In this document: in pieces, positions 5,704 to 22,340 of the stretch
Position numbering within the stretch: the stretch's first letter is position 1
How the letters are laid out: the number at the start of each line of letters is the position of its first letter
DNA from: a virus
Taxonomy: Duplodnaviria; Caudoviricetes
IMG/VR virus record: IMGVR_UViG_3300036798_000101
Location: 1-24,945 of that record
Length of the DNA: 24,945 nucleotides
Strand: one strand, 5' to 3'
Made by a program: the position numbers and the translations under genes
Notes under the pieces: model-generated
What the model was told of the DNA's origin: nothing
Database searches by the model: none
Seen by the model: the letters and a program-made list of their open reading frames with translations, nothing else

Positions 5704-6354
5704 CTACATTCCCGGCCCAAAATATTGCAGGAAAACTTTCTCGAAAAGTTTCATCCTTTCCGCACAATGGGCGGCAACTTCAGGCCTGGCGTGGTCGGAT
5801 TCCTTGGAAAGCGCGGTAGCCAAGACGGCATAAGTGAAGTAGTCCTGAGCCGCCGCAGTGATTGGAACGACGGACGCGCCCTGCGCGACGGTCGCGGGCG
5901 TCTGCTGGATGACCTGGCAGAGCGTACCGGCGACGTTCGGCGAGGGGTAGAGGAGGGCCTGCCCGGGACCGCCGACGCCGAGCACGGGGCCTGCGTCCAT
6001 CGAAAGGCGCGTCGGTACGCCCGTCTGAGCGCCCCATGCGGCCTCGAGCGCGTAGAGCTGCTCGACGTTCGTCAGCCTGAGAAGCTGGACGAGCGAGCCG
6101 TAGAGGAACCACGCCGCGACGGTGAAGACGTGGCCCGCGGGCATCGTGAGTTCCGCCTGTCCGCTCGTGACCACGACGGACGAATCGAAAACCTTGAAAA
6201 TGCCCGCCGTCCACGCGAGGCGCTTAACGGCTTCGTCGGCGAACTGGTAGAGATCGGCCGGCGGAACCCAGAGCGCGGCGTCGAGATCGGCCTGAGACTG
6301 AAAGCCGAGGCGATACCACAGATCGGCGACACTGTTCGCGACGTCGCAGGCCAT
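5704..6354 (-). CDS. Head-tail adaptor/ring-like protein 3
   Basis: 216 aa. N-terminal helices, central beta region with LYPSP, C-terminal helices. Same architecture as the upstream neighbour. Confidence 0.6.
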   Translation of the reverse strand: MACDVANSVADLWYRLGFQSQADLDAALWVPPADLYQFADEAVKRLAWTAGIFKVFDSSVVVTSGQAELTMPAGHVFTVAAWFLYGSLVQLLRLTNVEQLYALEAAWGAQTGVPTRLSMDAGPVLGVGGPGQALLYPSPNVAGTLCQVIQQTPATVAQGASVVPITAAAQDYFTYAVLATALSKESDHARPEVAAHCAERMKLFEKVFLQYFGPGM

Positions 6355-6360
6355 GCGGCT

Positions 6361-7065
6361 TTATTCGACGGGCGGGCGTCTCGAAGGCACGAGGTCTTTG
6401 CGGAGCTTCAGAAGCTGCGAACGGTCGAAGGCCGAGAATTCAAATGGTTGAACGTCGTACTGGTTTCCGCGATTTCTGGCGCGCACGTAATCGGCGCAGG
6501 CCTGCGCGGCGTCGAGGAACGATCCGAGAAGCGGAAGCGTCTGCTCGAGCGCCGCCGCGCCTTCGACCTGGCGCACGCGGTTGATCGCGTAGTCGGCGAG
6601 CTTCGGGTGGTACTGAACCGGAATCTGCGGCGCGTCGGCGTCGTTTGCGAGTGTGGCCGGCGCCTGCGCGTACGTCACGAGCGCCGTCGTCGTCACGATC
6701 GGCGACGGGTAAAGCGCGACGAGGTCGGCGCCGATACGGACGTAACGCTGCGGAGGGCCGAGCGCCAGCGGCCACTGCGCGTCGAGCGATGAGAGATCCT
6801 CGAGCCTCGCCGGTCGGACTTTCACGCGCTGCGTGTCGGCGATCCTGAGCGGCACGATCATGTCGGTGAAGACGGGTAACAGGTTGAAGAAGAGCTGCCC
6901 GGGCGTGATCGTCCAGGGCTCCGTAGTCTCGAGCACGAGCGTCAGGAGGCAGAAGAAACGCTGGCCCTCGTTGACCGCGGCGATGATTTCGGACGTCGGG
7001 TAGAACGTGGGCGTCGTTTCGTTGAGCTTGCCTGAGACGACGGTATAGAGTTCCTGCAGCGTCAA
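6361..7065 (-). CDS. Head-tail adaptor/ring-like protein 2 (tail tubular A / gp4-like role)
   Basis: TTG start overlapping the upstream TGA. MTLQEL...EIIAAVNEGQR...LYPSP...P.IP.QYH..LADYA is a common phage adaptor pattern. Confidence 0.7.
   Translation of the reverse strand: MTLQELYTVVSGKLNETTPTFYPTSEIIAAVNEGQRFFCLLTLVLETTEPWTITPGQLFFNLLPVFTDMIVPLRIADTQRVKVRPARLEDLSSLDAQWPLALGPPQRYVRIGADLVALYPSPIVTTTALVTYAQAPATLANDADAPQIPVQYHPKLADYAINRVRQVEGAAALEQTLPLLGSFLDAAQACADYVRARNRGNQYDVQPFEFSAFDRSQLLKLRKDLVPSRRPPVE
6363..6369 (-). promoter_or_regulatory. GTCGAAT motif, 8 nt before ATG 6354
   Basis: GTCGAAT-AAAGCCGC-ATG; overlaps the V-E-stop of the upstream gene. Confidence 0.6.
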
Positions 7066-8015
7066 TTCGGCCCGCCCTGGCCTGGTCCCCAGCCGCGGCC
7101 ATAGCTTCGGTCCACCCGGGCGAGACGATGCCTCGTAAACCGCGACTCCATTTTGAAAGACGTCGCCTTGCGGTTCTGCTGATGTTCGACGCGCAGCATG
7201 TCGGCCAGTTCGGCCCCCGCGCTGACGGTATAGGCGGCGGCTTTGGTCATGTCGCCGAGATGCACGGCGATTTTAGCCCGGGCGCATTCAACGATTGCGG
7301 CGTCGGTGACGAACGGCAGCGGCGATGCCGACGTGTTGGATCCGGTAAAGAAATTGGGGTTGCGGAAGTATTCGAGCCCGTACCCGCGCGAGCGGAGCGG
7401 CGGCGGGTAGAACTGAACCTGGTGGAGGACGGGCGGCGACGTTTCGGGCGTGTCGTCGTAAATCGCCCACGCGCCGGGATCCGACACCGTCGAGCGCGTG
7501 CCCCTCGAGGCGTCCATCCCGCCCTTCGTCATCTCCTCGAGCGGCAGTTCATTGACGGGGTTGAGTATCTGCGATGGCTGGGCGCAGTCCGCGGGAAGCG
7601 CGTAGACGTCCGTCATCATGACGTACGCAGCGCCCGCGTAAACGACTCCCGGCGCGTCGTAGCCCGTGCCTTCGTAGGGTCGGCCGAGCGAGAGCTGCGT
7701 CGCCGCAGTGATCGACTGGACGACGTACTGCGAATTGTCGCCGGGGCGATAGAAGAGGCGGTTCACCATCGCGGCGTTCCACGCCGTTCCGACGCCGTCG
7801 ACGACGGGCGATCCTACCGTGAGCGTGACGGATTCGGCCGGGAGCGACTGATACGCGGCGAGCGTCTGGATGACGCCGTGCGATCGCAGTCCGGTCCAGT
7901 CCGTCTTGTTGAGGATCGCGCGGTAGCACTCGTTGAGCCACTCGTCGAGCAGATCGAGCGAGACGCCCGGGGCGCTCGTCTGCAGGAGCATCCGAAGCTG
8001 GCCCCATGTGCTCAT
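7062..8015 (-). CDS. Head-tail adaptor/ring-like protein 1 with inserted beta domain
   Basis: MSTWGQLR...WLNECYRAI...W, YALPADC and QFYPPP adaptor motifs. Internal insert VTLTVGSPVVDGVGTAW...TQLSLGRPYEG. Confidence 0.65.
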   Translation of the reverse strand: MSTWGQLRMLLQTSAPGVSLDLLDEWLNECYRAILNKTDWTGLRSHGVIQTLAAYQSLPAESVTLTVGSPVVDGVGTAWNAAMVNRLFYRPGDNSQYVVQSITAATQLSLGRPYEGTGYDAPGVVYAGAAYVMMTDVYALPADCAQPSQILNPVNELPLEEMTKGGMDASRGTRSTVSDPGAWAIYDDTPETSPPVLHQVQFYPPPLRSRGYGLEYFRNPNFFTGSNTSASPLPFVTDAAIVECARAKIAVHLGDMTKAAAYTVSAGAELADMLRVEHQQNRKATSFKMESRFTRHRLARVDRSYGRGWGPGQGGPN

Positions 8016-8020
8016 AGGGA

Positions 8021-8395
8021 CTAGTCCGGGCCGGGGTAGATGCGCCGCCCGACGACGTAGACGGTGACCGCGTTCGTCTGATTGACGGGCGCGGCCAGCG
8101 TTCCCGAGCGCAGTTTCAGGTTCGTTACTCCGCTGAGAGTCTTGTCGCGGACGTCGATCGCGTAGTACGTCGATGCCGCCGTCGCGGGCGGAAGATCGAC
8201 CGGCGCGCCGGTCGAGTCGTTCAGTTCGACGTAGGAAGCGCCGTCGTCGAAGGAAATCTGATAGCTGATGCCCGCGGCTGTCCAGCCCGCCGGGAAGTAG
8301 AGGCCCGCAAGCGTGTAATCGCCGAGCAGCGCGGCAGTCGAGAGCGACTGCCCTGCCTGTATCGTCACCGGGACGCGCTTGAGGCCGATCGACAT
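8021..8395 (-). CDS. Hypothetical beta-rich virion protein
   Basis: 124 aa in the tightly packed structural operon; rich in Ala/Thr/Gly beta-strand residues. Confidence 0.65.
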   Translation of the reverse strand: MSIGLKRVPVTIQAGQSLSTAALLGDYTLAGLYFPAGWTAAGISYQISFDDGASYVELNDSTGAPVDLPPATAASTYYAIDVRDKTLSGVTNLKLRSGTLAAPVNQTNAVTVYVVGRRIYPGPD

Positions 8396-8399
8396 GAGC

Positions 8400-8903
8400 C
8401 TACGAGATCGTCACGCCCTGCGAGCGGACGAGGATCCACTTGCCGTTCGACGCCTGCACGGTGAGCGATGCGCCGGCGAACGCGGCGAACGTGGCGAGCG
8501 TGTTGCCCGCCGTCCCGGCGAGCAGATTGCCCGCGCCGAAACTGATCGTGTGCGCGAAGTTCGTCGTCGACGTAAACGTCATCGTCACGCCGTTCTGAGC
8601 CGCCGTGGGCGGCGCGACGGTGAGCGCGACCGCCGAGGCCGCGGTGATCTGGTAATTTCCGCCGGCAACGGGAACCGCGCCCGAGGCTGTAATCGCCGTC
8701 CCGAGCGAGCCCGGATTCAGCGCATAGACGACCGTGCCGTCCGGCTGACTGATCTGGAAGGCGTTCGCCGTCTGCGAGACGGGCACCTGAATGTCGAGGC
8801 CGACGTCCTTGCCCGAACCTATCGTGCGCGGATCGTGCCCCTGAGAGCCCGCCCCGCGCAGCACGATCGCAACCGGGCCGAAACTGGTTTTTTTGACCGG
8901 CAT
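8400..8903 (-). CDS. Putative head fibre/decoration protein
   Basis: GGAGG Shine-Dalgarno, immediately downstream of the major capsid gene, A/G/T-rich beta sequence. Confidence 0.6.
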   Translation of the reverse strand: MPVKKTSFGPVAIVLRGAGSQGHDPRTIGSGKDVGLDIQVPVSQTANAFQISQPDGTVVYALNPGSLGTAITASGAVPVAGGNYQITAASAVALTVAPPTAAQNGVTMTFTSTTNFAHTISFGAGNLLAGTAGNTLATFAAFAGASLTVQASNGKWILVRSQGVTIS

Positions 8904-8912
8904 TCGCGCCTC

Positions 8913-9833
8913 CTAGCTCGAGGGCACTCCGTACACGCCGTACCAGCCGTTGAAGCCGACACTGAAACGCATCCAGCCCGCCGTCTTGGTACTACGACTG
9001 TCGAAATCAATATCGTGCACCGTGTTGAACCGTTCGCGCCAGTAATAGCGCAGTTCGGTGTCCTGGACATCTGCTTCAATGAACCAGGCGTGCGGATCGG
9101 TCAGGTAGTCCCAGACCATCCACGAATCGAACGACGGCATCCCCGAGCGCCGGCGAAACGCATTGATCGTGTTGTTCGCCGTGTCGGGCCGGTCGGTCCC
9201 GCCGAGCAGCTCCGCGGCGATGAATTCGAGATCCGGCGGGAAAATCGCTTTCTTCGGCGGAATGCGCTGGAGCTTGCCGCGGTGATCGACGGTCTTACGC
9301 ATCGCGCCGAGCGCGAGCTGCATCGAGGTCACATCCGGGTCAGTCGGATACGGCAGTTTGTTCGACGCCGTCCCGCCTCCCACCAGCGGATGCAGGCTCG
9401 AAAACAGCGGCTGTCCGTCCGGGCCCGTCGCGCTCGTGAATCCCTGATTGAAGATCGCGGCGGCGGTTACTTCTTTCGTTTCGCTTGCGCTTCGGCCGAG
9501 TTCGCTCGAGAGCTTGCGTACGACGCCGAACTTGTCGTCGTCCATCGCCACGCGGGTGCAGCGGAACCCGAGCGAATACTGCGCGTGAACGTACGTTTTG
9601 TTGAACGCGGGCAAGGCTTCGTCGTACCGGGTGTCCTCGCCTTCGGGCACTAGCGCCATTTGCCCGAAGCCCGTGATTTCGGTGGTCTGTTCGATTGACC
9701 GCGAGGAGGTTTCCATGCGGAAGACTTCGGAGAATTCTTCGGGAAACCTCGAGTACTTCATCTGTACGACCTCGTCGATGGCCGGAAGCATCGACTGTAA
9801 ATAGAGGTCCGGGTAAAGGGTTCTGATGAACAT
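8913..9833 (-). CDS. Major capsid protein (HK97 fold, Mu gpT-like family)
   Basis: 306 aa with E-loop-like TSSRSIEQ...GFG...VPEG, ELGRSASETKE...FNQGF...GPDGQPLFS..HP and YLTDPHAWF. AGAGGA SD. Position after scaffold and decoration genes. Confidence 0.9.
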   Translation of the reverse strand: MFIRTLYPDLYLQSMLPAIDEVVQMKYSRFPEEFSEVFRMETSSRSIEQTTEITGFGQMALVPEGEDTRYDEALPAFNKTYVHAQYSLGFRCTRVAMDDDKFGVVRKLSSELGRSASETKEVTAAAIFNQGFTSATGPDGQPLFSSLHPLVGGGTASNKLPYPTDPDVTSMQLALGAMRKTVDHRGKLQRIPPKKAIFPPDLEFIAAELLGGTDRPDTANNTINAFRRRSGMPSFDSWMVWDYLTDPHAWFIEADVQDTELRYYWRERFNTVHDIDFDSRSTKTAGWMRFSVGFNGWYGVYGVPSS

Positions 9834-9860
9834 GGCTTATGTCCTCTGGTGGCGTCCTTC

Positions 9861-10430
9861 CTACGACCCCGCCGATCCCGGCGTGAAGGCGTGTTTCGAA
9901 ATGAAAACCTCGACGATGGCGTTCGGGCCTTCGTTATTGCTCATAATCTGAGCGACGCGGATGATGCGGAGATCGAGGCCCGCGGTCGCCGCGATCGAAC
10001 CGGAGTTCACCTGCATCAGCGACATCTTCGTGAGTGGGTTCCCGGGCGATGCGACGACGTTCGCGTTGTAGTTGGCGACGGACGCATTCGTGATATTCGT
10101 CGTACCGTTGCACTGCGCGATCAGGATGACGTCGATTTCGTCGCAGACGGGAATCACAGCCGCCACGCCCGCCAGGCCATAGGCGAGCGACGGCCCGAGC
10201 CAGAGGCTCGTTCCGGGCGTGAGCTGCGTTCCCGACTGCACGCGCGAGAGCGTAAACTGCGTCGGAGCTTCGGGCAGAGGCGTCGAAGTGCCGGCGATGT
10301 GGCCGACAAGATCGAAAGCCCAGATCGGATTGACGTCCGCGGCGGTCTTGCCGTACTCGCGGACGCTGAACGGCGAGCCGCCCTGTCTGATGACGGGGCG
10401 GAAGCCGAACGGAGAATTAGGATTTGCCAT
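9861..10430 (-). CDS. Putative capsid decoration/cement protein
   Basis: MANPNSPFGFRPV N-terminus is typical of the gene preceding the major capsid gene in many uncultured podoviruses; GGAGG SD. Confidence 0.65.
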   Translation of the reverse strand: MANPNSPFGFRPVIRQGGSPFSVREYGKTAADVNPIWAFDLVGHIAGTSTPLPEAPTQFTLSRVQSGTQLTPGTSLWLGPSLAYGLAGVAAVIPVCDEIDVILIAQCNGTTNITNASVANYNANVVASPGNPLTKMSLMQVNSGSIAATAGLDLRIIRVAQIMSNNEGPNAIVEVFISKHAFTPGSAGS

Positions 10431-10433
10431 GCG

Positions 10434-11363: not shown

Positions 11364-12109
11364 TTGGTCTTGCCGCCCATCTGCACGCCTGTCTTCGCGC
11401 GCTTGAGGTAGGCTTCTTCGCTGATGCCCATCATTGCGGCGATGTGCTTCTGTTCGGGCGTGAGCGTGTCGTCGTCTGTTTCCGCGCCTGAAGGACGGCG
11501 CGGCCCTGCGCCGCCTCCCTGCGCGTTAATGCGTGCCAGCCGGTCGGCCTCGCGGTCGCCCTTTGCTCCGTTCGGAGTACTGAGCTTGCCCGCACGCATA
11601 AATTCGAGTTCGGCCATACTTGCGGCGACTCCCATCGCGGTCGCGGGCGGCGTGCCGCTTTTGACGAGCTGCCCGTAATGGGTCGCAGTCGTCTTAAAGA
11701 AGTCGCTCTGGCGGTTCTTCAGGTCCGGGTACGTCGTGAGCAGTTCCTGCTCCGCCGAGTGCGCCGTCTGGATCGCGGTCGCGCGGGCGTCGATGAGCTG
11801 CTCGACTTCGGTTCGCTTGATGAAGCCCCGCTTCGCGGCGAGCCGGTCGAAGCCCTTCGTGCCTTCGGTGGTGATGGCCTCGAGGACGTCGGTGTCGTCT
11901 TCCTCTTCGGGTTCGGGCTGCGGCTGCGGCTGCGCGGGCGCTGCGGGTGTGCTGCGCGCCTGCGTGGCCCAGAATTCCGCGGTGCGCCGTGATTCGGCTA
12001 CCTCTTCGCGGAGTTCGGCGATTGTCTTCTCGAGGTCAGGGGCGGCTGCGGGCGCGGCGGCGGCGGGCGCGGATTCGGGCGCGGCGTTGTTTTCGGTATT
12101 TTCGTTCAT
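11360..12109 (-). CDS. Capsid scaffolding protein
   Basis: Acidic, low-complexity and helical, with C-terminal LTPEQKHIAAMMGISEEAYLK motif. Upstream of the capsid genes. Confidence 0.75.
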   Translation of the reverse strand: MNENTENNAAPESAPAAAAPAAAPDLEKTIAELREEVAESRRTAEFWATQARSTPAAPAQPQPQPEPEEEDDTDVLEAITTEGTKGFDRLAAKRGFIKRTEVEQLIDARATAIQTAHSAEQELLTTYPDLKNRQSDFFKTTATHYGQLVKSGTPPATAMGVAASMAELEFMRAGKLSTPNGAKGDREADRLARINAQGGGAGPRRPSGAETDDDTLTPEQKHIAAMMGISEEAYLKRAKTGVQMGGKTK

Positions 12110-12112
12110 ACG

Positions 12113-12472
12113 TCACAACTGCAAAGCGGCTCCGAAGGACGTACCGCCGTAAAGGTCACGCCTCGAGCGCGCATACGGGAGAACGCAACGACCACAAAGC
12201 ACCTGGAGCAGTCCATCCTTCGGCACCACGTAAAGCCTGTATTCGACTCCGGGATCCCGGTCGCGCAGTCGTTCCGCAGTTTCGCCGCACGCCTGACACC
12301 CGGGCGGTATGCCGCGGGCGGCGAGCAGATCGAGCGCCCGCATGTGCCACCCGAGGCAGTCGTCGCAGACGCGCTGCGCGGGCGCTGCGGGGGTTCCGAA
12401 ATGATGGAGCCGCCACGGCGGTAGCTGGCGGCTGCAATAGTTGCAGCGAATTGCTGCGACGAGCCCGTTCAC
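12113..12472 (-). CDS. Zn-finger hypothetical protein
   Basis: Four CxxC motifs (CNYC, CDDC, CQAC, CGRC); GTGA overlap with the upstream gene. Confidence 0.7.
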   Translation of the reverse strand: MNGLVAAIRCNYCSRQLPPWRLHHFGTPAAPAQRVCDDCLGWHMRALDLLAARGIPPGCQACGETAERLRDRDPGVEYRLYVVPKDGLLQVLCGRCVLPYARSRRDLYGGTSFGAALQL

Positions 12473-12732
12473 TTCTTTACGGGCTGCTGGGCGGCGTGCG
12501 CTGCGTTCGCGGCGTCGTGCTTCTTTTCTTTTTCGGCGTCTTTCGCGGCGGCTTCGGCGTCCTGGGCGTGCGTGGTGAGGCCGAGTTCCCCGGCGATCGC
12601 GACGGCGTCGTCGCCCTCGAGCGTGACGGCGTTCGCGCCGATCGCGAGGACGACGGAGTCATCCGACGTTACGGCGGCTGTCTGGACCAGCTCCTCGTTG
12701 AAGGCGAGCTTTTTACTTTTGGTGACGAACAT
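12469..12732 (-). CDS. Hypothetical protein (87 aa)
   Basis: Fits operon packing; preceded by the GTCGAAT motif. Confidence 0.7.
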   Translation of the reverse strand: MFVTKSKKLAFNEELVQTAAVTSDDSVVLAIGANAVTLEGDDAVAIAGELGLTTHAQDAEAAAKDAEKEKKHDAANAAHAAQQPVKK

Positions 12733-12741
12733 ACCGCCGTC

Positions 12742-12748
12742 ATTCGAC
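12742..12748 (-). promoter_or_regulatory. GTCGAAT motif, 9 nt before ATG 12732 (head of the scaffold/capsid run)
   Basis: GTCGAAT-GACGGCGGT-ATG; intergenic. Confidence 0.65.
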
Positions 12749-12758
12749 GGCGGCGCGT

Positions 12759-13025
12759 TCAGCGTTTTTTAGGCTGTGGCTTCGGCGCTTCCATTTCGGC
12801 GAGTATGACGCCGGGGAGCCGCAGTATCGCTTCGACCATTCCCGCGGCGCCCTGCGCCCGCCAGATGTCGCGGGGCTCGTCGAGACGCTGGCAGTCGTTC
12901 ATGAGGCGAAGCAGCTCGCGCGAAACGCGGTCACGGTAGCGGATGAACGACGGCGACTCGATCATTTCGCGGAAGCGGTCGCGGTCGAGCGTGTCGGGCG
13001 GTTCGGGCTTCGCCGTGACGTCCAT
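12759..13025 (-). CDS. Small helical head-module protein
   Basis: 88 aa. The IWRAQG...MVEAILRLP pattern resembles small genes normally found between portal and scaffold. Abuts the upstream stop. Confidence 0.65.
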   Translation of the reverse strand: MDVTAKPEPPDTLDRDRFREMIESPSFIRYRDRVSRELLRLMNDCQRLDEPRDIWRAQGAAGMVEAILRLPGVILAEMEAPKPQPKKR

Positions 13026-13505
13026 TTAGTGCCTCTCGAGGTAGCCGATCATCTTACGAAGTAACGCGGTGTTGTCCTTGACCTTGCCAAGAGTGAGATT
13101 ACAGCGGCCACAGAGCCAGCCGCGAAACTTTCCGGTCGCGTGGCAGTGATCGAACGCGAGCCGCGGTTCTCGCTCGCCGCAGATATCGCACGCTTCGGAG
13201 GGCGGCGTTTTCGCCTTCGCTTCTATCTTCGTGCGGCGCGCGACTTTGTAACAGGACTTGCAGCGGGCGACGTGGCCCCGGGCCTTTGTGTTGTCACGAA
13301 AGAAATCGTTCGGGCCCTTCTTCTCTCCGCACTTCGCGCACTCGAAGGTGTGGCGCTTTTGCTTGGACGCGCTATGGCAGGCCGTTGAGCAGAATCGGAC
13401 GCGAGATCGCTGTACAGCAGCACGTGACGGACGCACCGAAAACCGAACGCGACAGACCTCGCACTCGAATGAAATCTGACGTTCCTTCCAACCGGCTTTC
13501 GGCAT
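13026..13505 (-). CDS. Endonuclease VII-family nuclease with N-terminal Zn fingers (possible homing endonuclease)
   Basis: CDICG...LAFDHCHATGKFRGWLCGRCNLTLGKVKDN is the endonuclease VII signature. Upstream motifs CEVC...FCSTAC and CAKC...CKSC. Confidence 0.85.
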   Translation of the reverse strand: MPKAGWKERQISFECEVCRVRFSVRPSRAAVQRSRVRFCSTACHSASKQKRHTFECAKCGEKKGPNDFFRDNTKARGHVARCKSCYKVARRTKIEAKAKTPPSEACDICGEREPRLAFDHCHATGKFRGWLCGRCNLTLGKVKDNTALLRKMIGYLERH

Positions 13506-13564
13506 CTACCCATCATTCGCCTCGCGGTTGTCTCGCATCAAGACCGCGGGTACGGCAAAGCGGC

Positions 13565-13846
13565 TTAGTACCGCCCGTTGTGAGTTATCGCCGAGTTTGA
13601 ATCCATTCTGGCCTCGCGGAGCTTGCGGATCGCGGCGGAGCGGTCGGGGCAGGGCGGCGCGTTCGCGATGATCATTTTGACAGCGTTCGCGAGCGCGTTG
13701 CGGATCGCGGTCCCCTGCGCGACCTTCATTTCATCCCACTTGTGGTACTCGAAACAGTCGTCCACCTGGTCGGAGACTTCGTCGGAGACGGCGCGGGCGC
13801 GCGTGAAATCGATGGGCGGCTTACCGATTGGCGTGTCGAGCGGCAT
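13565..13846 (-). CDS. Acb2/Tad1-type helical-hairpin protein (candidate immune-nucleotide sponge)
   Basis: F.YH...AIR.A....I..NAP..PDRSAAIRKLREARM..NSAI pattern recognised by eye. Confidence 0.65.
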   Translation of the reverse strand: MPLDTPIGKPPIDFTRARAVSDEVSDQVDDCFEYHKWDEMKVAQGTAIRNALANAVKMIIANAPPCPDRSAAIRKLREARMDSNSAITHNGRY

Positions 13847-13861
13847 TCCCGCGATGATAAC

Positions 13862-14023
13862 TCAGCGCGCGGGGATGGCTTTCAGGAGTTCGGCAAGACT
13901 CCAGAGCGCGAGGCCGATCGACAGGAAGCTCCAGCGCGGCGGCGTCGGCGGCGACGGCTGCGCGGCCGACACGAGGAAGCACACGAAGGCGAGCAGCATC
14001 AGGACGATGTACACGATTCCCAT
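13862..14023 (-). CDS. Small two-TM membrane protein (53 aa)
   Basis: Not in the ORF track: MGIVYIVLMLLAFVCFLVSAAQPSPPTPPRWSFLSIGLALWSLAELLKAIPAR. Fills the gap between neighbours; GTCGAAT motif 8 nt upstream. Confidence 0.75.
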   Translation of the reverse strand: MGIVYIVLMLLAFVCFLVSAAQPSPPTPPRWSFLSIGLALWSLAELLKAIPAR

Positions 14024-14029
14024 GCCGTC

Positions 14030-14293
14030 TTATTCGACGGCGGCGAAAGGCTGCGGGTGGTTTACGTTGAAGAACGTGGACGTCGGCGTCGTCATGACGG
14101 TAACACTGCCTCCGTCGACGTCGATATTCACCGAGCAGCACACGCCCCCGGACTTTGCCGTGAATGCGAGCGCGTAGCGCCGGACGTAATGGGCCGAATG
14201 AATTGTTTCGATCTGCGTTCCGGCAGACGGTTTATCCGCGTCGAAAAACAGCTCGATCATATCGCCGCTATCGTTCTTATGGATCAGTGTCAT
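14030..14293 (-). CDS. Hypothetical beta-rich protein (87 aa)
   Basis: AGGGGG SD-like sequence; fits gene packing. Confidence 0.65.
   Translation of the reverse strand: MTLIHKNDSGDMIELFFDADKPSAGTQIETIHSAHYVRRYALAFTAKSGGVCCSVNIDVDGGSVTVMTTPTSTFFNVNHPQPFAAVE
14032..14038 (-). promoter_or_regulatory. GTCGAAT motif, 8 nt before ATG 14023
   Basis: GTCGAAT-AAGACGGC-ATG; overlaps V-E-stop. Confidence 0.65.
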
Positions 14294-14308
14294 TTGCCCC
14301 CTGCCTGC

Positions 14309-14521
14309 TTATTCGACGGCGTCCGTCCGGGCGTCGGCTTTGCGGAGCTGGCGCAGCGCCTCGTCGATGTGGGAGCGTGCGATCGCGTTCGTCCCTTCGG
14401 GGTCGGCGAGACGGTCTTTCGCCTCCAGCAGGAGGGCTTCGATCGTCACGTTGCAGAGCGGATCGCGATGTCCGAGCGCCGAGCGCGGCTCGCGCGGGCT
14501 CTCGGATCCGCCCGTGCTCAT
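14309..14521 (-). CDS. Hypothetical protein resembling the Tad1 C-terminal helical hairpin
   Basis: ATGA-coupled. Contains NVTIEALLLEAKDRL...NAIARSHIDEALRQL. Confidence 0.55.
   Translation of the reverse strand: MSTGGSESPREPRSALGHRDPLCNVTIEALLLEAKDRLADPEGTNAIARSHIDEALRQLRKADARTDAVE
14311..14317 (-). promoter_or_regulatory. GTCGAAT motif, 17 nt before ATG 14293 (SD-containing leader)
   Basis: GTCGAAT-AAGCAGGCAGGGGGCAA-ATG; overlaps V-E-stop. Confidence 0.55.
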
Positions 14522-14718
14522 TTCCCCAGCTTCGCGTTCGCCCGCCGGTCGATCTCGGCCTCGAGCGACTTCGAGAGATTGCCTGCTTTGACCTGTTGGG
14601 ACGCCCGCGCTTTCGCGTTCGCCGCGTGCGCGCGGTCATTCACCGGATAGCTTCGGCCCGGGCCCGCGAACGCCGACGCCGGCAGCGCGTTACGTTTCTT
14701 CGCCGTCAGTTTCGCCAT
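14518..14718 (-). CDS. Small basic conserved phage protein (DUF6582-like)
   Basis: MAKLTAKKRNALPASAFAGPGRSYPVNDRAHAANAKAR is a widespread phage motif. Confidence 0.75.
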   Translation of the reverse strand: MAKLTAKKRNALPASAFAGPGRSYPVNDRAHAANAKARASQQVKAGNLSKSLEAEIDRRANAKLGK

Positions 14719-14938
14719 GCGGTGAGTTTACGACGGAAAAGTTTCGAATGCGCTGGTGCAGGATCGCTTCGTACTCGTCCATTACGGTGAGCTGCCGGAA
14801 CATCAACCGGCGTTCCTCCTCAGGCAGCTTTGAAAATATCGGGTTCGTAGTGACGAAGAGGTGAAGTCTCTCCTTCCGCAGGCTCAGTTCCTCGTGTTCG
14901 GCGACGACGCGCTCTTCATGCGGTTGCATCGCCGTCAA
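14690..14938 (-). CDS. crAss001_48-related / Sequestin-like helical protein
   Basis: H..RVVAE..EL..R..RL..F....F..L...ER.LM..Q...M..Y..IL..RI..F. Start is TTG 14938 or ATG 14929; abuts the portal stop. Confidence 0.65.
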   Translation of the reverse strand: MTAMQPHEERVVAEHEELSLRKERLHLFVTTNPIFSKLPEEERRLMFRQLTVMDEYEAILHQRIRNFSVVNSPHGETDGEET

Positions 14939-17092
14939 TTATGACGCCCCGTGCAGGTACTCCTGACCCTGGTGCCCCGAGTAGATGTTCGGCCCCTGCG
15001 CCTGCGGGTTGCCCTGCGGCTGGAACGGCGGATTGCCGAAGAGCCCGTTCGGGAACTGGAGCGGCGCGCCCGCGGCGCTCGCCTGATTCGCCGCGGCGAC
15101 GGCGTGCTCGACGACGGCCTGCGCGATCTTTTTTTGCTGAAGCTGCGCGACGTGGTTGAGATAGTGCGCGTGCAGCTTCGCGAGCGCGTCGGGGTCGCGG
15201 TTCGGATCGGCCAGCGCCCGGGTATAATCCTGCGCGTGGCGGATCATATGGAGCTGATCGTTGTCCATCGGATTGACGTGAACATCCTCGCCCTCGAGCA
15301 TTTCGGTCCATTCGACTTTCGGGTCGATCGGGATGTCGGGCTGCGGTGGTTCGGGTACGAGATCCCCGAAGTTGGGATCCCCAAGAGCCTCGTGTACGTC
15401 GCGCGTGACGGCCCACAACGCACGCGGATTCTGCACAATCAGCGGGTTCTGAAGGTCGAGCTGGTAGCGGGCCAGCGTCTGCTCCTTCTTCACTTCCTTG
15501 CTCCAGACGCTCGAAGCGAACTCGAGCCGGAAATCGTACCTTCCGTCCCTGTCCTCGAGCGTCAGGACTGAGCCGCCCTTCTGCGTCGGAAAGAGCCCGT
15601 CGGCGTCCTCTTCCGTCACGCGGAAGAAAACCTCTTCGGGCGAAAACATATACTCCAGCTCCCAGATATGCGTCAGGACCGCGCTCATGTCCTCGCGCAG
15701 GACTTTCGTATCGAGGCTTATGCGGACGTTTCCTTCTTCCAGTAACTTGACCGTCTGCGTTGCCGTGCGCGGCGCGTTCGGGCGGTCGATCTGGCGCCCC
15801 ATCTGAAGGTCGGACAGGCCCGTGAGTTTTTCCCCGTAGGCGAGAATCGCCTGCTCCTTCCACGTCGCGAGGTCGAGGTTCGCCGTGATCTTGATCTCGC
15901 GGATGTCGGTCGCGGGGTTGTCGAGCGGAATGGCGAGCCCGGGCGCGAGGCGTATCGTGTCGGGCGTGACGCCCGCGGCGGGGCGGTAGCCGAGCGGCGG
16001 CGTCATCGCCATCTGCGCCCCTTCGGTCGCCTGGTTATGGTTTACCGAGAGTTCGTCCTCGATGTTCACGAGCATTTCGCACATGCCCATGCACCAGTAC
16101 GTCCCGTCCTGCGTCATCTGCGTTTCGACGAACGGGCGGCGGTTCTTCGTCGTGGGGTAGAGATCCTCGAGCGACTGGATCCCGATCACCATGTGCAGAT
16201 CCCACAGATATTTGATGCAGAAGTCCTGCTGGCGCATCTCGCGCTTGTCGAAGTCGTATTCCGCCGCCGAACGCTTGCCCTTCTTTAAGGGCCTCCAGCG
16301 TCCGTACCACTCGAGAATGGTGACCCACTCACCCGACGAGAGCGGGCGGTCGTACAGGATCCCTTCGGCCTCGTCGCGCTCGCGCTTGATCTCCTCGCCG
16401 TCCGTATCGCGCATCGTGCCGTTCTGCGCGTACGTCACGATGCGGTCCCAGTTCTCAGTAATTCCCTGATACTTGCCTTCCGCTTCGCCCTTCAGCAAGT
16501 CGTCGGGACGCACGCGCACGCGGCGGATGATGAACGAGAAATCGTGCAGCGAGCTGACGTCTTCCGCCGGCACGATGAAGTCGTCGGGCCAGAGCGGATC
16601 GAAGCCCGCGCCTTCGTAATCGACGACTTCCTGCCCCTTTACCTCGAACGTCTCGCGCTTCCACGGCGAATACGCGACCGATCGGCCGAAAATGAGCTTG
16701 CGGAGAACGAACACGCAGAACGGATTGAGCAGGCGCATGGAATTGAACACGCGCCACGTCATGTATCTCGAGATCTTCTGGTCCTTGCGGTAGTCGCTGG
16801 GCCCCACGGGCTTCGCGACGATCTCGGCGTCGTCGCCGAAGAGCCCGTCCATCTCCTTCGATAACTTCGTTAAGATGTTCCACTGGCAGTACGGGACCGG
16901 GAAATTCGAGGCGTCTTCCTCGCCCATCGCCGGCACGCCGGCCATCTGGCGCCAGCGCCGGTAGTAATCGCGCCAGCGGCGGATCCGCAGATTGTGATCG
17001 GAGATCGCGTTGCGGTAGTCGCTCTGCACGCGGCTCGCGATGCGGGAAACCTCCGGGTCGGGCCATTTTAGCTGGAACGCTGATTGCTCCAC
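14939..17092 (-). CDS. Portal protein (P22-like podovirus type)
   Basis: 717 aa, GTG start. Contains RPFV...YWCMGMCEML...EDELS..HNQ, EKLTGLSDLQMG...RTAT and a Q/P-rich C-terminus. Lies between terminase and head genes. Confidence 0.9.
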   Translation of the reverse strand: MEQSAFQLKWPDPEVSRIASRVQSDYRNAISDHNLRIRRWRDYYRRWRQMAGVPAMGEEDASNFPVPYCQWNILTKLSKEMDGLFGDDAEIVAKPVGPSDYRKDQKISRYMTWRVFNSMRLLNPFCVFVLRKLIFGRSVAYSPWKRETFEVKGQEVVDYEGAGFDPLWPDDFIVPAEDVSSLHDFSFIIRRVRVRPDDLLKGEAEGKYQGITENWDRIVTYAQNGTMRDTDGEEIKRERDEAEGILYDRPLSSGEWVTILEWYGRWRPLKKGKRSAAEYDFDKREMRQQDFCIKYLWDLHMVIGIQSLEDLYPTTKNRRPFVETQMTQDGTYWCMGMCEMLVNIEDELSVNHNQATEGAQMAMTPPLGYRPAAGVTPDTIRLAPGLAIPLDNPATDIREIKITANLDLATWKEQAILAYGEKLTGLSDLQMGRQIDRPNAPRTATQTVKLLEEGNVRISLDTKVLREDMSAVLTHIWELEYMFSPEEVFFRVTEEDADGLFPTQKGGSVLTLEDRDGRYDFRLEFASSVWSKEVKKEQTLARYQLDLQNPLIVQNPRALWAVTRDVHEALGDPNFGDLVPEPPQPDIPIDPKVEWTEMLEGEDVHVNPMDNDQLHMIRHAQDYTRALADPNRDPDALAKLHAHYLNHVAQLQQKKIAQAVVEHAVAAANQASAAGAPLQFPNGLFGNPPFQPQGNPQAQGPNIYSGHQGQEYLHGAS

Positions 17093-17100
17093 AGAGGTAC

Positions 17101-17107
17101 ATTCGAC
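17101..17107 (-). promoter_or_regulatory. GTCGAAT motif, 8 nt before portal GTG 17092
   Basis: GTCGAAT-GTACCTCT-GTG, in the 17-bp divergent gap. Confidence 0.7.
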
Positions 17108-17109
17108 CT

Positions 17110-17445
17110 ATGAGCCAATCGAAGCTGGCGGTGCTTCGCCCGCCGCTGATTCCCCCGTCCCACCCGGACGCCCCGAAATACTGGATGCACGAAACGAGCG
17201 GCCAGCTCGCCGCCGCGATCCAGCGTTATCTGCGCTCGCGCCGTCTGATGAAGGTGCGCGACGTCGCGATGATGCGCGCGTACTTCCGGCAGTGGATCAA
17301 CTCGCCTGTGTGGGACCAGAACCCGCACGAGTCGTCGCGCGCGAATCTCGGCGAGCTGCGGAGGACCGTCGAGGAGATCGTGTCGGTCGAAGGGATCGAC
17401 ATGTGGCTGCGGCTTGCGGAGCACGCGGGGCTCGATCCGCTGTGA
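17110..17445 (+). CDS. Hypothetical protein (111 aa), opposite strand
   Basis: Protein-like composition (YWMHETSG...MRAYFRQW...W...GLDPL). Occupies the gap with no credible minus-strand gene. Confidence 0.75.
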   Translation: MSQSKLAVLRPPLIPPSHPDAPKYWMHETSGQLAAAIQRYLRSRRLMKVRDVAMMRAYFRQWINSPVWDQNPHESSRANLGELRRTVEEIVSVEGIDMWLRLAEHAGLDPL

Positions 17446-17750
17446 GGCGCAGGAAGGCCGACGCGATCGGGCGGCTCTACGTCGAAGGCAAGCTGCGCGA
17501 ACGCTGGAAGATCTTCGGAGATGCCGACGTACACGCGATCCTGATGGGCTTCGTCGAGCGTTACGATCTGCTGAACCACAAGCATATGGTCGAGATCGAA
17601 TTCCCCGCTCTTCCTGTCGGGCAGCGTTATACACGCTTCGGAACCGATCCTTCGATGATGGTTAATCCGCGGGTCATCCGACCGTCAAGACGGGGCCGAA
17701 AGCCGTGTTTTTCACCGCCCCGACCCCCTAGCGACGCCGCCGCGAACTGA
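17442..17750 (+). CDS. Hypothetical protein (~102 aa), opposite strand
   Basis: GTG at 17442 overlaps the TGA of the previous gene (GTGA). This is the 3' part of track ORF 17040..17750: MRRRKADAIGRLYVEGKLRERWKIF... Confidence 0.65.
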   Translation: MRRRKADAIGRLYVEGKLRERWKIFGDADVHAILMGFVERYDLLNHKHMVEIEFPALPVGQRYTRFGTDPSMMVNPRVIRPSRRGRKPCFSPPRPPSDAAAN

Positions 17751-17922
17751 CGACGACGGCGGGCTTCTTCGCGACGTCCGCGGCGTGCTTCTTCGCCATC
17801 GCGCGGCCCTTCGCCGTTTCCTTGTTGCCGTGCATCGCGCCGATCGCGTTCATTGTTCCGTAAACAGCGCCCGGGTTGTTCGGGTACTCCTTCTTGAGCT
17901 TGTCTTCCAGGAACTTCGGCAT
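17728..17922 (-). CDS. Small basic hypothetical protein (64 aa)
   Basis: MPKFLEDKLKKEYPNNPGAVYGTMNAIGAMHGNKETAKG; GCCGATAA 7 nt upstream. Confidence 0.75.
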   Translation of the reverse strand: MPKFLEDKLKKEYPNNPGAVYGTMNAIGAMHGNKETAKGRAMAKKHAADVAKKPAVVVSSRRRR

Positions 17923-17929
17923 GGGTCCA

Positions 17930-17937
17930 TTATCGGC
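17930..17937 (-). promoter_or_regulatory. GCCGATAA, perfect sigma28 -10 consensus, 7 nt before ATG 17922
   Basis: GCCGATAA-TGGACCC-ATG; same register as the GTCGAAT-N8 copies. Confidence 0.6.
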
Positions 17938-18007
17938 ACCGCATCGACGCGAGCGCGAGCACGCACGCCAGCCAGAAGAGCGCCAGCGCGACGGCGGTGC
18001 GCGTCAC
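17930..18007 (-). CDS. Putative 25-aa single-TM peptide
   Basis: GTGA overlap with the methyltransferase stop. MTRTAVALALFWLACVLALASMRCR fills the gap. Confidence 0.5.
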   Translation of the reverse strand: MTRTAVALALFWLACVLALASMRCR

Positions 18008-18741
18008 GCGCCGACCGCCAGAACGCCCTGGCTGAGTCGTTTCGCCGCGATCTCGCAGTAGCGTTCGTCGATCTCGATTCCGATCGCCGAGAGGCCGAGC
18101 GCCTGCGCGGCGACGAGCGTAGAGCCAGAGCCCGCGAACGGATCGCAGACGACGCCCGCGGGCGGGACGGAGTAGCGCAGGAGCGGATTGAGAATCGCGA
18201 GCGGTTTCTGCGTCGGGTGTTCGGCGTAGCCGTGACAGTTCGCCGCGAAAATCACGCTTTTCATAAGACGCGCGCCGTACGAGTACTCCGCGCCTCCGAT
18301 GTCGCCCGTATGCTCCGGTCGGGCTGCGCGCCGGATGATTCCGACGCGATCGCCCGCCATCGTGATTGGCGCCTTAAATACAGCCGCCCACTCGCCGCGG
18401 TAGAAGTGCGCCGCGATTTCATGCACGCGCCGGAAACGATCAGACTGGAATCCGCTGCCGTTCTGCTTTTCCCAGACGATTTCCTGCGCGTGCTTCCAGC
18501 CGCGATCCTCGCCCGAACGCGCCAGCTCGCGAAACATGCGGAGCGAGCCGAAACACCAGAGCGAATTCGTTACCGCCGCCGCGGCGTCCATCCAGCCGTT
18601 CACGCGGGCGTCCCAGCCGAGCGACGTTTCGCCGTACGGCGGATCCGTTATGACCGCCGCCGCGCGCCCGAGCGTCGGAAGGATCTCGCGGCAGTCGCCG
18701 CAGTACAGCGTGACGCCGTCGCCTTCGTAATACGGCTTCAT
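18004..18741 (-). CDS. DNA methyltransferase, N4-C/N6-A, beta class
   Basis: TLYCGDCREIL, ITDPPYG (motif IV) before HPTQKP and DPFAGSGSTL (motif I), GIEIDERYCEIA. Confidence 0.93.
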   Translation of the reverse strand: MKPYYEGDGVTLYCGDCREILPTLGRAAAVITDPPYGETSLGWDARVNGWMDAAAAVTNSLWCFGSLRMFRELARSGEDRGWKHAQEIVWEKQNGSGFQSDRFRRVHEIAAHFYRGEWAAVFKAPITMAGDRVGIIRRAARPEHTGDIGGAEYSYGARLMKSVIFAANCHGYAEHPTQKPLAILNPLLRYSVPPAGVVCDPFAGSGSTLVAAQALGLSAIGIEIDERYCEIAAKRLSQGVLAVGA

Positions 18742-18941
18742 TGCGTCAGCCTCGCGATCTTCGCCGCCTGCTTGCGGGCTTCGGACTCAAGCCACTCCTT
18801 CGCTTTCGCGACGACGCCCGGGAGCGGTTCGGGCGTACGCAGCTCTTTCCGCAGTTCGTAGGGCAGTTTCCCGAAGCACGACCAGCAGAAGATGTGCCAG
18901 TCCTGCACCGTCACCGCGCCGCACGGGCAGTGTCCGGGCAT
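18738..18941 (-). CDS. Small Cys-rich hypothetical protein
   Basis: HCPCG...FCWSCFGKLP; overlaps both neighbours (TGATG, ATGA). Confidence 0.7.
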   Translation of the reverse strand: MPGHCPCGAVTVQDWHIFCWSCFGKLPYELRKELRTPEPLPGVVAKAKEWLESEARKQAAKIARLTQ

Positions 18942-19339
18942 CAGCGGATCAGCGGGACGGGCTCATACGTCCGCGGTCCCGTCTGCTCCGAGAACGTCAG
19001 CTTCTCGATATCGGGCTTGAGGAGATACGTCTCGAGCGCCTTCAGCGTGACCGACGCGGCCTCGAGGAACTTCTGCGCTCCGAGTGCCTTTCGGACCTTC
19101 TCTTTGTCGGCGCGGCGCTCCCAGCCGCGCGCCGAGATCATGACGCGGAAGCGATCGCCTTCGACGCGGAATTCGGCGTCGGGGTCGTAGTCGGCGACGA
19201 GCTTCGCTAACTGGTCGCGGCATTTGTTGTAGCGGGTCTGCGTGGGGCTGAACTGGTCCTTGAGGATCGACAGGTCGCCGTATTCGTCGCACAGTGACGC
19301 CGGTACTACCAGCGTCGGCTTGGGCAAAGTATGCGCCAT
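18941..19339 (-). CDS. Hypothetical phage protein (132 aa)
   Basis: Protein-like composition, coupled to the downstream gene, GTCGAAT 8 nt upstream. Confidence 0.75.
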   Translation of the reverse strand: MAHTLPKPTLVVPASLCDEYGDLSILKDQFSPTQTRYNKCRDQLAKLVADYDPDAEFRVEGDRFRVMISARGWERRADKEKVRKALGAQKFLEAASVTLKALETYLLKPDIEKLTFSEQTGPRTYEPVPLIR

Positions 19340-19347
19340 AGCGGTAC

Positions 19348-19354
19348 ATTCGAC
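19348..19354 (-). promoter_or_regulatory. GTCGAAT motif, 8 nt before ATG 19339
   Basis: GTCGAAT-GTACCGCT-ATG; intergenic. Confidence 0.7.
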
Positions 19355-19416
19355 AGTGGCCCCCTAGCCGGGACTGATTACCCCGGCGAACGGTTTACCC
19401 GCCACCGGGGGCCGCT

Positions 19417-19890
19417 TCACCGCCAGCCGAGCTTCGCCATCAGCCGCGCCGTCCGCTTCGCCGGCATCGCGGCGATCTTCGCCGAGATCTCCTCGCGCGT
19501 CCAGTTGAACGTGATCTCTTCCGAGAGCGGCTTCTGCGCCCTGCGCCCGGGCCCGGTGTAGCGGCGAAGGCCCCGGCGCTCGCAGCCTTCGTGCCCGTGC
19601 CACCACTGGTCGCGCGTAATCATCGCGTCACAGTAACGGCACTTCACGAGGCGCGGACGCTGCGCGGGCGCTGCGCTCGTCTGCGTACGCGGCGTCCGCG
19701 GCGGTTTCGGCGGCGTCGTTCCGCGCGGCGTGTAAAAGCGGTTGCGATGCGTGCATCCGTCGTGCGCGCCGCGGTCGTACTCGGTGCGCGTGATGATTGC
19801 GCCGCAGTACCCGCACGGCACGAGCAGGATCGGACGTCCGCGTTTCCTTCGGCCGAGCGAGGCGAGGATCGCAGAAGCGAGCGCCGTCAT
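19417..19890 (-). CDS. Basic protein with two tandem CxxC-x11-HxxC Zn-finger-like repeats
   Basis: LVPCGYCGAIITRTEYDRGAHDGC and LVKCRYCDAMITRDQWWHGHEGC; GTCGAAT 8 nt upstream. Confidence 0.7.
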   Translation of the reverse strand: MTALASAILASLGRRKRGRPILLVPCGYCGAIITRTEYDRGAHDGCTHRNRFYTPRGTTPPKPPRTPRTQTSAAPAQRPRLVKCRYCDAMITRDQWWHGHEGCERRGLRRYTGPGRRAQKPLSEEITFNWTREEISAKIAAMPAKRTARLMAKLGWR

Positions 19891-19898
19891 GCGGCGTT

Positions 19899-19905
19899 AT
19901 TCGAC
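19899..19905 (-). promoter_or_regulatory. GTCGAAT motif, 8 nt before ATG 19890
   Basis: GTCGAAT-AACGCCGC-ATG; intergenic, after terL. Confidence 0.7.
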
Positions 19906-19907
19906 AG

Positions 19908-19925: not shown

Positions 19926-19935
19926 TTGATTTCTC

Positions 19936-21690: not shown

Positions 21691-22340
21691 CTGACGCCCC
21701 GCCAGATCATTTCTCGCGCGCTCGCCAGCTTCTCGCGCACCCACGTCGGCGATCGTCCGCACGCCGCCGCCGTCTCGCGCAGCGCCGCGCCTTTGAGGTA
21801 CGCGAGCATTACGCATCGTTCGGCGTGCGGGAGCGTCTCGATGACGCGATGCAGACGCCGGCGCACGAGAGCGTGCCCTGCGACGTCGTCGACGCGCTGG
21901 CCGCGGTCGGCCTCGAGCGACGGCGGGAGCCAGCCGCCGCGGGACTCGCGCATCGCGTCGAGCGATACGGCGCCCTCCTCGCGGTATGCACGGCGCTTCT
22001 GCGAATCGATAATCGAGCCCCGGATGCGGAAGTAAGCATACGCCGCGAACGCGCCGAGCTGCGGATCGTACGCATTCGCCGCCTGCACGAGGCCCACGCA
22101 TCCGGCCTGCTGCAGATCGCGCACATCGATGTGAGCTGCGAACATGCGCCGGACGTCGCGCGCGACTCTTGCGACGGTCGGAAGCGTCTCCTCGATCGAC
22201 GACTCGCGGCGCCAGCGCCTCCAGGCCCCGAGTTTCCCTTTATTCTTTAGGGTCTGGCTTGTAAGTGTCTGATTCCGCACGCGGTCGTCCCGCAGGTATT
22301 GGTCCCACAGTTTGTCCTCGAGCTTCCTACGTTTTGGCAT
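21687..22340 (-). CDS. Sigma-70 family RNA polymerase sigma factor, FliA/WhiG-like region 2
   Basis: Region 2 DLQQAGCVGLVQAANAYDPQLGAFAAYAYFRIRGSIID. Region 4 HTH LPHAERCVM...LRETAAACGRSPTWV. GGAGGAAGG SD. Confidence 0.88.
   Translation of the reverse strand: MPKRRKLEDKLWDQYLRDDRVRNQTLTSQTLKNKGKLGAWRRWRRESSIEETLPTVARVARDVRRMFAAHIDVRDLQQAGCVGLVQAANAYDPQLGAFAAYAYFRIRGSIIDSQKRRAYREEGAVSLDAMRESRGGWLPPSLEADRGQRVDDVAGHALVRRRLHRVIETLPHAERCVMLAYLKGAALRETAAACGRSPTWVREKLASAREMIWRGVR

Follow-up and report, generated by a model that had tools for sequence, protein, structure and literature searches.

GTCGAAT as a candidate single-element promoter of a phage-borne FliA-like sigma factor before putatively leaderless late genes

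Described systems and the phage locus

Single-element promoters read by phage-encoded sigma factors are already established; the features of described systems given here are those stated in the available portions of the cited papers. T4 gp55 acts at one short motif, TATAAATA, located at -13 to -6 before late genes, and this motif diverges along with gp55 in Aeh1 (PMC1524935). The phiEco32 sigma gp36, having domains 2 and 4, serves middle and late promoters with a single visible element 6-8 nucleotides (nt) before the transcription start (PMC8948821, PMC12276001). Here we consider the word GTCGAAT, which recurs at a short distance before minus-strand start codons in the virus record IMGVR_UViG_3300036798_000101 (the window, all of its 24,945 bases; CheckV completeness 54%, G+C about 65%), together with the sigma-70-family factor encoded by the same phage.

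Our preferred reading, to which we assign a probability of about three in four, is that GTCGAAT is the whole sequence-specific promoter of the FliA-derived phage sigma, with transcripts likely starting within approximately 2 nt of the start codon and the first gene leaderless. The initial annotation had suggested that the phage sigma reads these sites, perhaps through the -10 element alone, and makes leaderless transcripts. This proposal is supported by the spacing, the absence of -35 and Shine-Dalgarno (SD) sequences, the FliA register, the contact residues and a change of the second base of the word that goes with the sigma sequence. By analogy, the system would work like late control of the gp55/gp36 type with a FliA-derived reader.

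The likeness is not complete. T4 gp55 needs gp33 and the sliding clamp, belongs to a large lytic phage and reads a different word (PMC1524935); gp36 recognises tAATGTAtA and acts with the activator gp79 (PMC8948821, PMC12276001). For neither of the two are leaderless messages mentioned. Leaderless genes transcribed with sigma-70 have no SD and carry TANNNT at a short, constant distance of about 12 nt from the start; this element is read by the host primary sigma (PMC3160421). The phage sites share this arrangement, whereas GTCGAAT matches an alternative, phage-borne sigma.

The -10 element of the Pseudomonas aeruginosa fliC promoter is (-15)GCCGATAA(-8) (PMC12784957; PDB 9WSM, 6PMI). In FliA of this species, Y76 stacks on A-11, which is flipped out. 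The -12 pair is contacted by R80 and R82, and the -13 pair by D87 and R90; domain 3 contributes R97, which reads -15/-14, and the -35 element is read by Q228 (PMC12784957). The E. coli FliA sites are bipartite (PMC4183435). The phage system resembles FliA, sigma-28 and WhiG in the -15 to -8 register, in G-15, C-13, G-12 and A-11, and in the contact residues of regions 2.3-2.4. Unlike these factors, the phage sigma has no domain 3, scores below the family cut-off and is phage-encoded, and the candidate sites have no TCTAAAG at -35, T or G at -14, AT rather than TA at -10/-9, and the start codon at the predicted +1. Phage sigmas of the sporulation type are described in PMC9429907. Our literature search on FliA-type phage sigmas, leaderless late genes, GTCGAAT and sigmas of Acidobacteria phages, in which subscription journals were mostly uncovered, found no published account of the present system.

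Conservation of the word across the phage family

In a set of 26 records to which the window belongs, ATG or GTG follows 90 of the 140 sigma-strand GTCGAAT copies at a distance of 8-10 nt (N8-N10), against a background of 4.9%. A blind scan of 7-mers in 21 of these records placed GTCGAAT at the top (95/165), and loci of unrelated sigmas, used as controls, gave 0/42 and 1/39 at N8. A held-out set was then formed by 80 loci chosen by the capsid alone, from which 14 on already used contigs were removed. At capsid identity of at least 71% (42 loci, including two near-duplicates), 60 of the 97 copies are at N8-10, 48 of them at N8, with the background of about 5%. This is the positional enrichment in relatives that the initial annotation had suggested looking for.

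In the window itself, GTCGAAT occurs 11 times, ten of them on the gene strand. The shuffle mean is 5.75 and at least 11 copies are seen in 5 of 100 shuffles, which is marginal. At the same time, the word is found at N8-9 before six of the 29 annotated gene starts, with 0.02 expected. The raw count is near chance, and the position is not. The position test is post hoc, and therefore the held-out, capsid-selected test weighs more.

Judged by position, 23 of the 25 in-register sites in four complete genomes fall within the virion arm or the terminase-lysis arm, as expected for a single short motif that precedes late genes and is mostly missing from early ones. Comparison of orthologues demonstrates that the in-register sites are acquired and lost gene by gene. 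In 17 of 43 portal genes, the window included, the motif precedes an in-frame GTG situated 0-52 codons ahead of the conserved core, the N-terminal extension being variable; thus the word and the start shift together. In G004 (L150:12426-15581), the arm with portal, capsid and tail genes has the opposite orientation to terS-sigma-terL, and motif sites go with the genes on both strands. The sigma-2 domain is encoded in 17 of 20 capsid-selected records, and in all seven near-complete ones; altogether, 63 sigma homologues were found.

The start codon is GTG in all 17 motif-led portal genes and in all eight motif-led orthologues of a virion protein of 1098 amino acids (aa).

Structure of the site

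The site was characterised using 100 non-redundant sites, compared with 80 homology-defined starts having no such word. The spacing is N8 in 71 sites, N9 in 21 and N10 in 8, and the base directly after the word is A in 52. SD-like words are seen at three sites vs. 37 control starts, so the lack of SD at short-spaced sites, noticed initially in the window, is a property of the family. A pyrimidine occupies position -1 in 77 sites (60 of the 71 N8 sites) vs. 39 controls, and the G-2/Y-1 combination (Y, pyrimidine) is present in 50 sites vs. seven controls. Such a pyrimidine at -1, followed by a purine at +1, is a mark of transcription starts. The 8-mer of the N8 sites ends 7 nt before the start codon, which, with no SD present, is the layout of leaderless genes, whose -10 element lies about 7 nt upstream. 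Moreover, the N8 register equals that of the fliC -10 element, and therefore the start codon would be at +1.

No conserved -35 element had been observed in the window, and none was found in the family. The position matrix yields at most 0.11 bits at each position 3-45 nt upstream of the 100 sites, the best 4-mer and 5-mer of the upstream windows are equalled by 9 and 32 of 100 shuffles, respectively, and TAAA at the FliA spacing (N13-17) is present at two sites.

Most of the 21 one-mismatch variants of the word are at background, with weak enrichment of GTCGAAG, GTCGAGT, GTCGAAC, GTCGAAA and GGCGAAT. Two other words considered in the initial annotation fared worse. GCCGATAA before 17922 had been taken as a bridge to FliA and GTCGTAA as a variant; family-wide, GCCGATA (3/89) and GTCGTAA (1/50) are background words, and the bridge is not supported at that level.

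The phage sigma factor

The putative reader of the word is encoded by the following gene.

21687..22340, minus strand: sigma-70-family factor, 217 aa, flanked by the small and large terminase genes

The protein consists of an N-terminal helix, a FliA-like domain 2, a short linker and domain 4, with domain 3 absent. In Pfam, Sigma70_r2 is present, r4_2 is weak and r3 is not found. The score with the FliA/WhiG profile TIGR02479 is 65.3 bits vs. the cut-off of 189.6 (a bacterial FliA, used as a control, scores 245 bits on the FliA/WhiG profile), and that with NF005413 is 54 vs. 201, while the general sigma superfamily profile TIGR02937 gives 70 vs. 42.9 bits. The AlphaFold model (predicted local distance difference test 88.8, predicted template modelling (TM) score 0.50) starts with a long N-terminal helix, followed by three helices of domain 2 and, beyond a short linker of low confidence, domain 4. 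A Foldseek search with this model returned sigma factors at low TM scores. Among solved structures, FliA and WhiG are the best sequence matches, in domain 2. The distance from the conserved Asp to domain 4 is 58 residues vs. 107 in FliA, that is, 49 fewer.

Residues R58, Y101, R105, R107, D112 and K115 align with FliA R32, Y76, R80, R82, D87 and R90. The offset of 5 between the numbering of the PDB chain and that of the paper is our own derivation, in which nine named residues matched. In A1, an alignment of 40 of the 63 homologues from which the sigma-picked relatives were derived by taking whole contigs, the aligned contact residues are kept in 35-40 sequences (Y101 in 35, R105 in 35, R107 in 39, D112 in 40). 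The position of R90 is Lys in all 40, and Arg is found there in other relatives. The position of Q228, which reads the -35 element in FliA, is Gln in just two of the 40. The phage sigma has kept domain 4, in which an S-x-T-W-T-R helix is conserved.

Judged by these comparisons, the factor is FliA-like in domain 2 only and is not a member of the FliA/WhiG group. It has the residues reading -13C, -12G and -11A, and lacks the family-level score, the complete set of domains 2, 3 and 4, and a bipartite promoter. The initial description of the sigma as FliA/WhiG-like holds for domain 2 and its contact residues and does not extend to the whole protein, given the missing domain 3 and 65 vs. 190 bits. 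Nor does it fit the extracytoplasmic function (ECF, group 4) sigmas, which have a strict bipartite -35/-10 promoter and a linked anti-sigma. The possession of domains 2 and 4 only is shared with this group; no -35 element was found, the neighbours are terminase genes, and domain 2 is nearer to the FliA/WhiG structures. As in phage late-promoter systems, the sigma is phage-encoded and conserved across the group.

Residues 7-43 (window 21694-22322) form a long N-terminal helix of basic character, which in the core clade ends in a conserved G-x-W-R-R-W-x-R segment; more distant sigmas lack this feature. Two records, G028 and G146, contain two sigma-like matches each.

The following mechanism may be proposed. 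After prophage induction, the sigma would join the host core RNA polymerase, domain 2 would read G-15 T-14 C-13 G-12 A-11 A-10 T-9 and flip A-11, and domain 4 would serve mainly as a polymerase anchor and not as a -35 reader. The +1 position would be A or G of ATG or GTG. Transcripts would begin at the first genes of many late units, and later genes of each unit, such as the capsid cluster, would rely on SD sequences or translational coupling.

Residue 115 and base -14 of the candidate promoter

In relatives with 60-68% capsid identity, GTCGAAT gives way to GGCGAAT (0/8 and 17/46, respectively). The preference for one of the words could be called in 29 of 47 sigma-bearing records: Lys115 is present in 20 of the 21 records preferring GT, and Arg115 in seven of the eight preferring GG. 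In pooled counts, from which G013 and G025 were excluded and six records with other residue pairs were tallied apart, the 26 Lys115-Arg116 records have GTCGAAT at 108/205 and GGCGAAT at 14/141, whereas the 13 Arg115-Arg116 records have 5/79 and 23/107, respectively. Three records, G138, G140 and G143, carry capsids 77-79% identical to that of the window, and yet have Arg115 and lean towards GG. Residue 115, equivalent to FliA R90, is thus predicted to bias base -14 towards T (Lys) or G (Arg); it was chosen after a first look at the data. The shift of preference is a hint, but no proof, that the word is read by the phage sigma.

Sites in the window

The candidate sites are listed below; N followed by a number is the spacing to the start codon.

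19899..19905, minus strand: GTCGAAT, N8 before ATG 19890 (157-aa gene after terL)
19348..19354, minus strand: GTCGAAT, N8 before ATG 19339 (132-aa gene); motif in 8 of 20 orthologues
17930..17937, minus strand: GCCGATAA, same register before ATG 17922; doubtful
17101..17107, minus strand: GTCGAAT, N8 before portal GTG 17092
15310..15316, minus strand: GTCGAAT inside portal coding sequence, with an in-frame ATG at N8; probably incidental
14728..14734, minus strand: degenerate GTCGTAA, N9 before ATG 14718 (66-aa gene, phrog_16160)
14311..14317, minus strand: GTCGAAT, N17 before ATG 14293, purine-rich gap; short-leader case
14032..14038, minus strand: GTCGAAT, N8 before ATG 14023 (53-aa membrane peptide); overlaps the upstream stop
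13515..13521, minus strand: GGCGAAT, N9 before ATG 13505 of an endonuclease VII-like gene; Arg115 relatives prefer this word
12742..12748, minus strand: GTCGAAT, N9 before ATG 12732; closest in-register site upstream of the capsid cluster
12241..12247, minus strand: GTCGAAT within a 119-aa gene (Val-Glu-Tyr); not in register, as 12109 is about 130 nt downstream
6363..6369, minus strand: GTCGAAT, N8 before ATG 6354 of a gene for a 216-aa structural protein; shares bases with the stop codon of the adaptor gene
24434-40, minus strand: GTCGAAT, a copy not listed initially

In the initial annotation, the word had been placed 8 nt before 6354, 14023, 17092, 19339 and 19890. For 12732 a spacing of 9 nt and for 14293 one of 17 nt had been given, and variants had been noted at 13515-21, 14728-34 and 17930-37. 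All these coordinates are correct and the variants are present; the list had missed three minus-strand copies, 15310-16, 12241-47 and 24434-40.

Conservation differs from site to site. The 14718 gene has GTCGAAT at N8-9 in all four orthologues, and the 12732 gene has it at N8 in both of its two; the site at 12742..12748 lies in an 8-bp hairpin. The 6354 site is lineage-specific, as none of 22 orthologues carries the motif, the GGCGAAT of the window is seen in neither of the two orthologues of the 13505 gene, and the orthologue search for the 14293 gene found none. The copy at 15310-16 encodes Lys-Val-Glu-Trp and is not retained in most relatives. GCCGATAA at 17930-37 doubles as the 3' end (Cys-Arg-stop) of a 25-codon open reading frame (ORF), and neither of two orthologues of the 17922 gene has a G(T/G)CGAA(T/A) word. 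Being in-gene, out of register or a background word, the copies at 15310, 12241, 24434 and probably 17930 were dropped as regulon members.

The 25-codon ORF (17930-18007, minus strand) is hydrophobic, overlaps the methyltransferase stop and ends in GCCGATAA; its orthologue was not found. Perfect hairpins abutting the start codon, with the motif partly in the loop, are located at 12732-12756 and 14023-14044 (minus strand). Start-abutting hairpins show a small family-wide excess and could mask starts in read-through RNA.

Weighing of the interpretation

Several observations weigh against the single-element promoter. The complete genome of G005 has only two exact sites. At capsid identity below 60%, the sigma is retained and neither word is enriched (0/7 and 2/19); a de novo motif search in the distant relatives yielded no convincing promoter word. 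Positions 76 and 117 split the GT and GG labels as well as position 115. Only three independent contrasts are available on the portal tree, all of them concordant (sign test p 0.25), and only one on supported branches of the sigma tree. There are exceptions: G145 has Lys and prefers GG; G013 has Arg and GT at 2/3; GG precedes the portal in the Lys115 phages G005 and G008; and GT is found in the Arg115 records L087 and G138. As for precedents, a computed promoter of phage 7-11 (PMC4331800) was later superseded by a different, bipartite consensus (PMC8948821), and phiEco32 gp36 contacts the -35 region despite its one-element consensus (PMC12276001).

A bolder extension would be that a minimal sigma without domain 3 runs the late programme of temperate phages from 7-base promoters, with many leaderless units, each tuned in its output by the start codon (GTG for the portal), and that a repeated Lys/Arg swap in region 2.4 turns GTCGAAT into GGCGAAT, making a one-residue, one-base code and an orthogonal switch pair. 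We regard this extension as possible, but doubtful.

The alternative that survives best, although unlikely, is that the promoter word serves an alternative sigma of the host, of the FliA, type III secretion system or ECF type, the phage sigma doing something else. The GT/GG split could indeed track host lineage. On the other hand, the canonical FliA word GCCGATA is at background (3/89), TAAA at the FliA spacing is rare (2/100), the sigma is present in all seven near-complete relatives, and between the sister taxa G142 and G012 both the residue and the word change (Lys with GT and Arg with GG, respectively).

Slightly less probable is that the sigma does read the word, but transcription starts several nucleotides upstream, or a second element or a phage co-activator, like T4 gp33/gp45 or phiEco32 gp79, is needed. 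This would agree with the retention of domain 4 and its S-x-T-W-T-R helix, with gp36 touching -35 bases while having a single-element consensus, and with 29 of the 100 sites being at N9-N10 and the occurrence of N17 cases. The upstream regions, at most 0.11 bits per position and with top 4- and 5-mers equalled by 9 and 32 of 100 shuffles, speak against this reading, as does the pyrimidine signature at -1, peaking at N8 (60/71).

An element acting at the RNA level, be it a non-SD translation signal, stop-restart coupling, or a hairpin or cleavage site making leaderless ends from read-through RNA, is improbable. A stop triplet starts from the T of the word in 46 of the 100 sites, and the site flanks fold slightly better than swapped ones (-3.7 vs. 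-3.1 kcal/mol, 0/200 swaps). However, the triplet closes an ORF of at least 60 codons at only nine sites, and stop-codon coupling was rejected as the main explanation. The folding excess is carried by a minority of sites, including two window sites that are perfect hairpins, while most sites have no stable hairpin, and a shared hairpin was rejected as well. Furthermore, the invariant bases are those read by FliA domain 2, in the FliA register, and in G004 the word heads the divergent portal operon, pointing away from the terminase-sigma genes.

Finally, chance, that is, Val-Glu codons and the common TCGA word in a GC-rich genome, has a negligible probability for the family: the window count is near chance, GTCGAAT accounts for 14 of 76 Val-Glu-x codon strings and 11 of the 100 sites may be gene-internal, but the held-out copies (60/97) have a sharp N8 peak and most of the 21 one-mismatch variants are not enriched. 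For the family chance is refuted; it may hold for 15310, 12241, 17930 and possibly 6363.

If the promoter reading is correct, the late-gene switch would be defined for an uncultured, probably temperate phage family with genomes of about 45-48 kilobases (kb), a flagellar-type sigma domain would work with neither domain 3 nor a -35 box, and a phage sigma would be tied to leaderless translation. The pairing of Lys/Arg with T/G would provide a handle on how region 2.4 reads an extended -10 element, and possibly a compact orthogonal expression tool. Since this promoter would be only seven bases long and the start is predicted to the base, the test is cheap.

Phage, relatives and host

The minus strand of the window encodes, in this order, two DNA methyltransferases, a helix-turn-helix gene, the small terminase, the sigma-70-family gene, the large terminase, portal, capsid, adaptor and tail-related genes. 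The main ones, apart from the sigma, are:

22327..22683, minus strand: small terminase (phrog_10899); start set from orthologues and sequence
19936..21690, minus strand: large terminase, 584 aa (phrog_2)
14939..17092, minus strand: portal, 717 aa, GTG start (phrog_1216, weak, E 0.003); relatives at 46-85% identity
8913..9833, minus strand: major capsid, SD-led (AGAGGA)

The methyltransferase genes, of the N6/N4 and D12 classes, are located at 18004-18741 and 23482-24435 (minus strand), one of them between terL and the portal gene.

Among 50,697 deposited phage records, the nearest capsid matches are at most 35% identical, and tblastn with the sigma gave no match. The relatives are uncultured records, the complete genomes being about 45-48 kb; there are 271 capsid clusters at E <=1e-100. 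Scans of viral contigs with single sequences (sigma, integrase, terL) added nothing new. A search of sequencing runs with window 12000-21900 listed no RNA data set that holds this stretch. The family is probably temperate, because four complete relatives have a tyrosine integrase and some records are classed as proviruses.

The host was sought in several ways. A 77%-identical capsid is labelled Bryobacteraceae and lies on a contig of 113,762 bases, more than twice the phage genome; a capsid-cluster protein labelled Vicinamibacterales is on a 2.5-kb contig, and another one, labelled Streptosporangiaceae, is on a contig of at most 27 kb. A scan of GTDB with a strict sigma pattern yielded ten matches, one of them a relative (24.9-kb contig in a Streptosporangiaceae bin). 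As a 189-aa capsid-cluster protein has matches in none of 100 other sampled Actinomycetota genomes, the Streptosporangiaceae label was not adopted. A transfer RNA scan of 24 loci found none, and ESM Atlas returned no host taxon. A host in Acidobacteriota, possibly Bryobacteraceae, is an unconfirmed lead only. Proviruses of Bryobacterales are described in PMC11924767, the available part of which does not mention the sigma or the promoter. The family has a mild excess of TAnnnT at 6-7 nt ahead of ATG (31 and 32 vs. 5-24 at other distances), which hints that the host translates leaderless messages.

Other observations

The 1715-aa protein of G002 (L149:2345-7492), at the end of the virion arm, has a ddrB-like ParB domain.

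In the late region of the window, a 93-aa protein (13565-13846, minus strand) has a weak match to the Acb2/Tad1 hairpin (E 0.002, below the cut-off); PADLOC and PDB searches gave no match. Its gene has TATCAT 7 nt before ATG and no GTCGAAT. Among the relatives, G007, G004, G002 and L130 have TAnnnT at N5-7; G138 and G143 have CAnnnT at N7. Possibly, this is an anti-defence gene with its own leaderless promoter read by the host sigma-70. The sigma-70 scan found no bipartite promoters, and terminator-like sites are at the chance level.

Directly upstream of the small terminase start, at 22686-22725 (minus strand), there is a tandem repeat of GGATCTATCAGAC. At the equivalent place, the relatives have a repeated (G/T)ACCCATGAA-like word, a candidate packaging or operator site.

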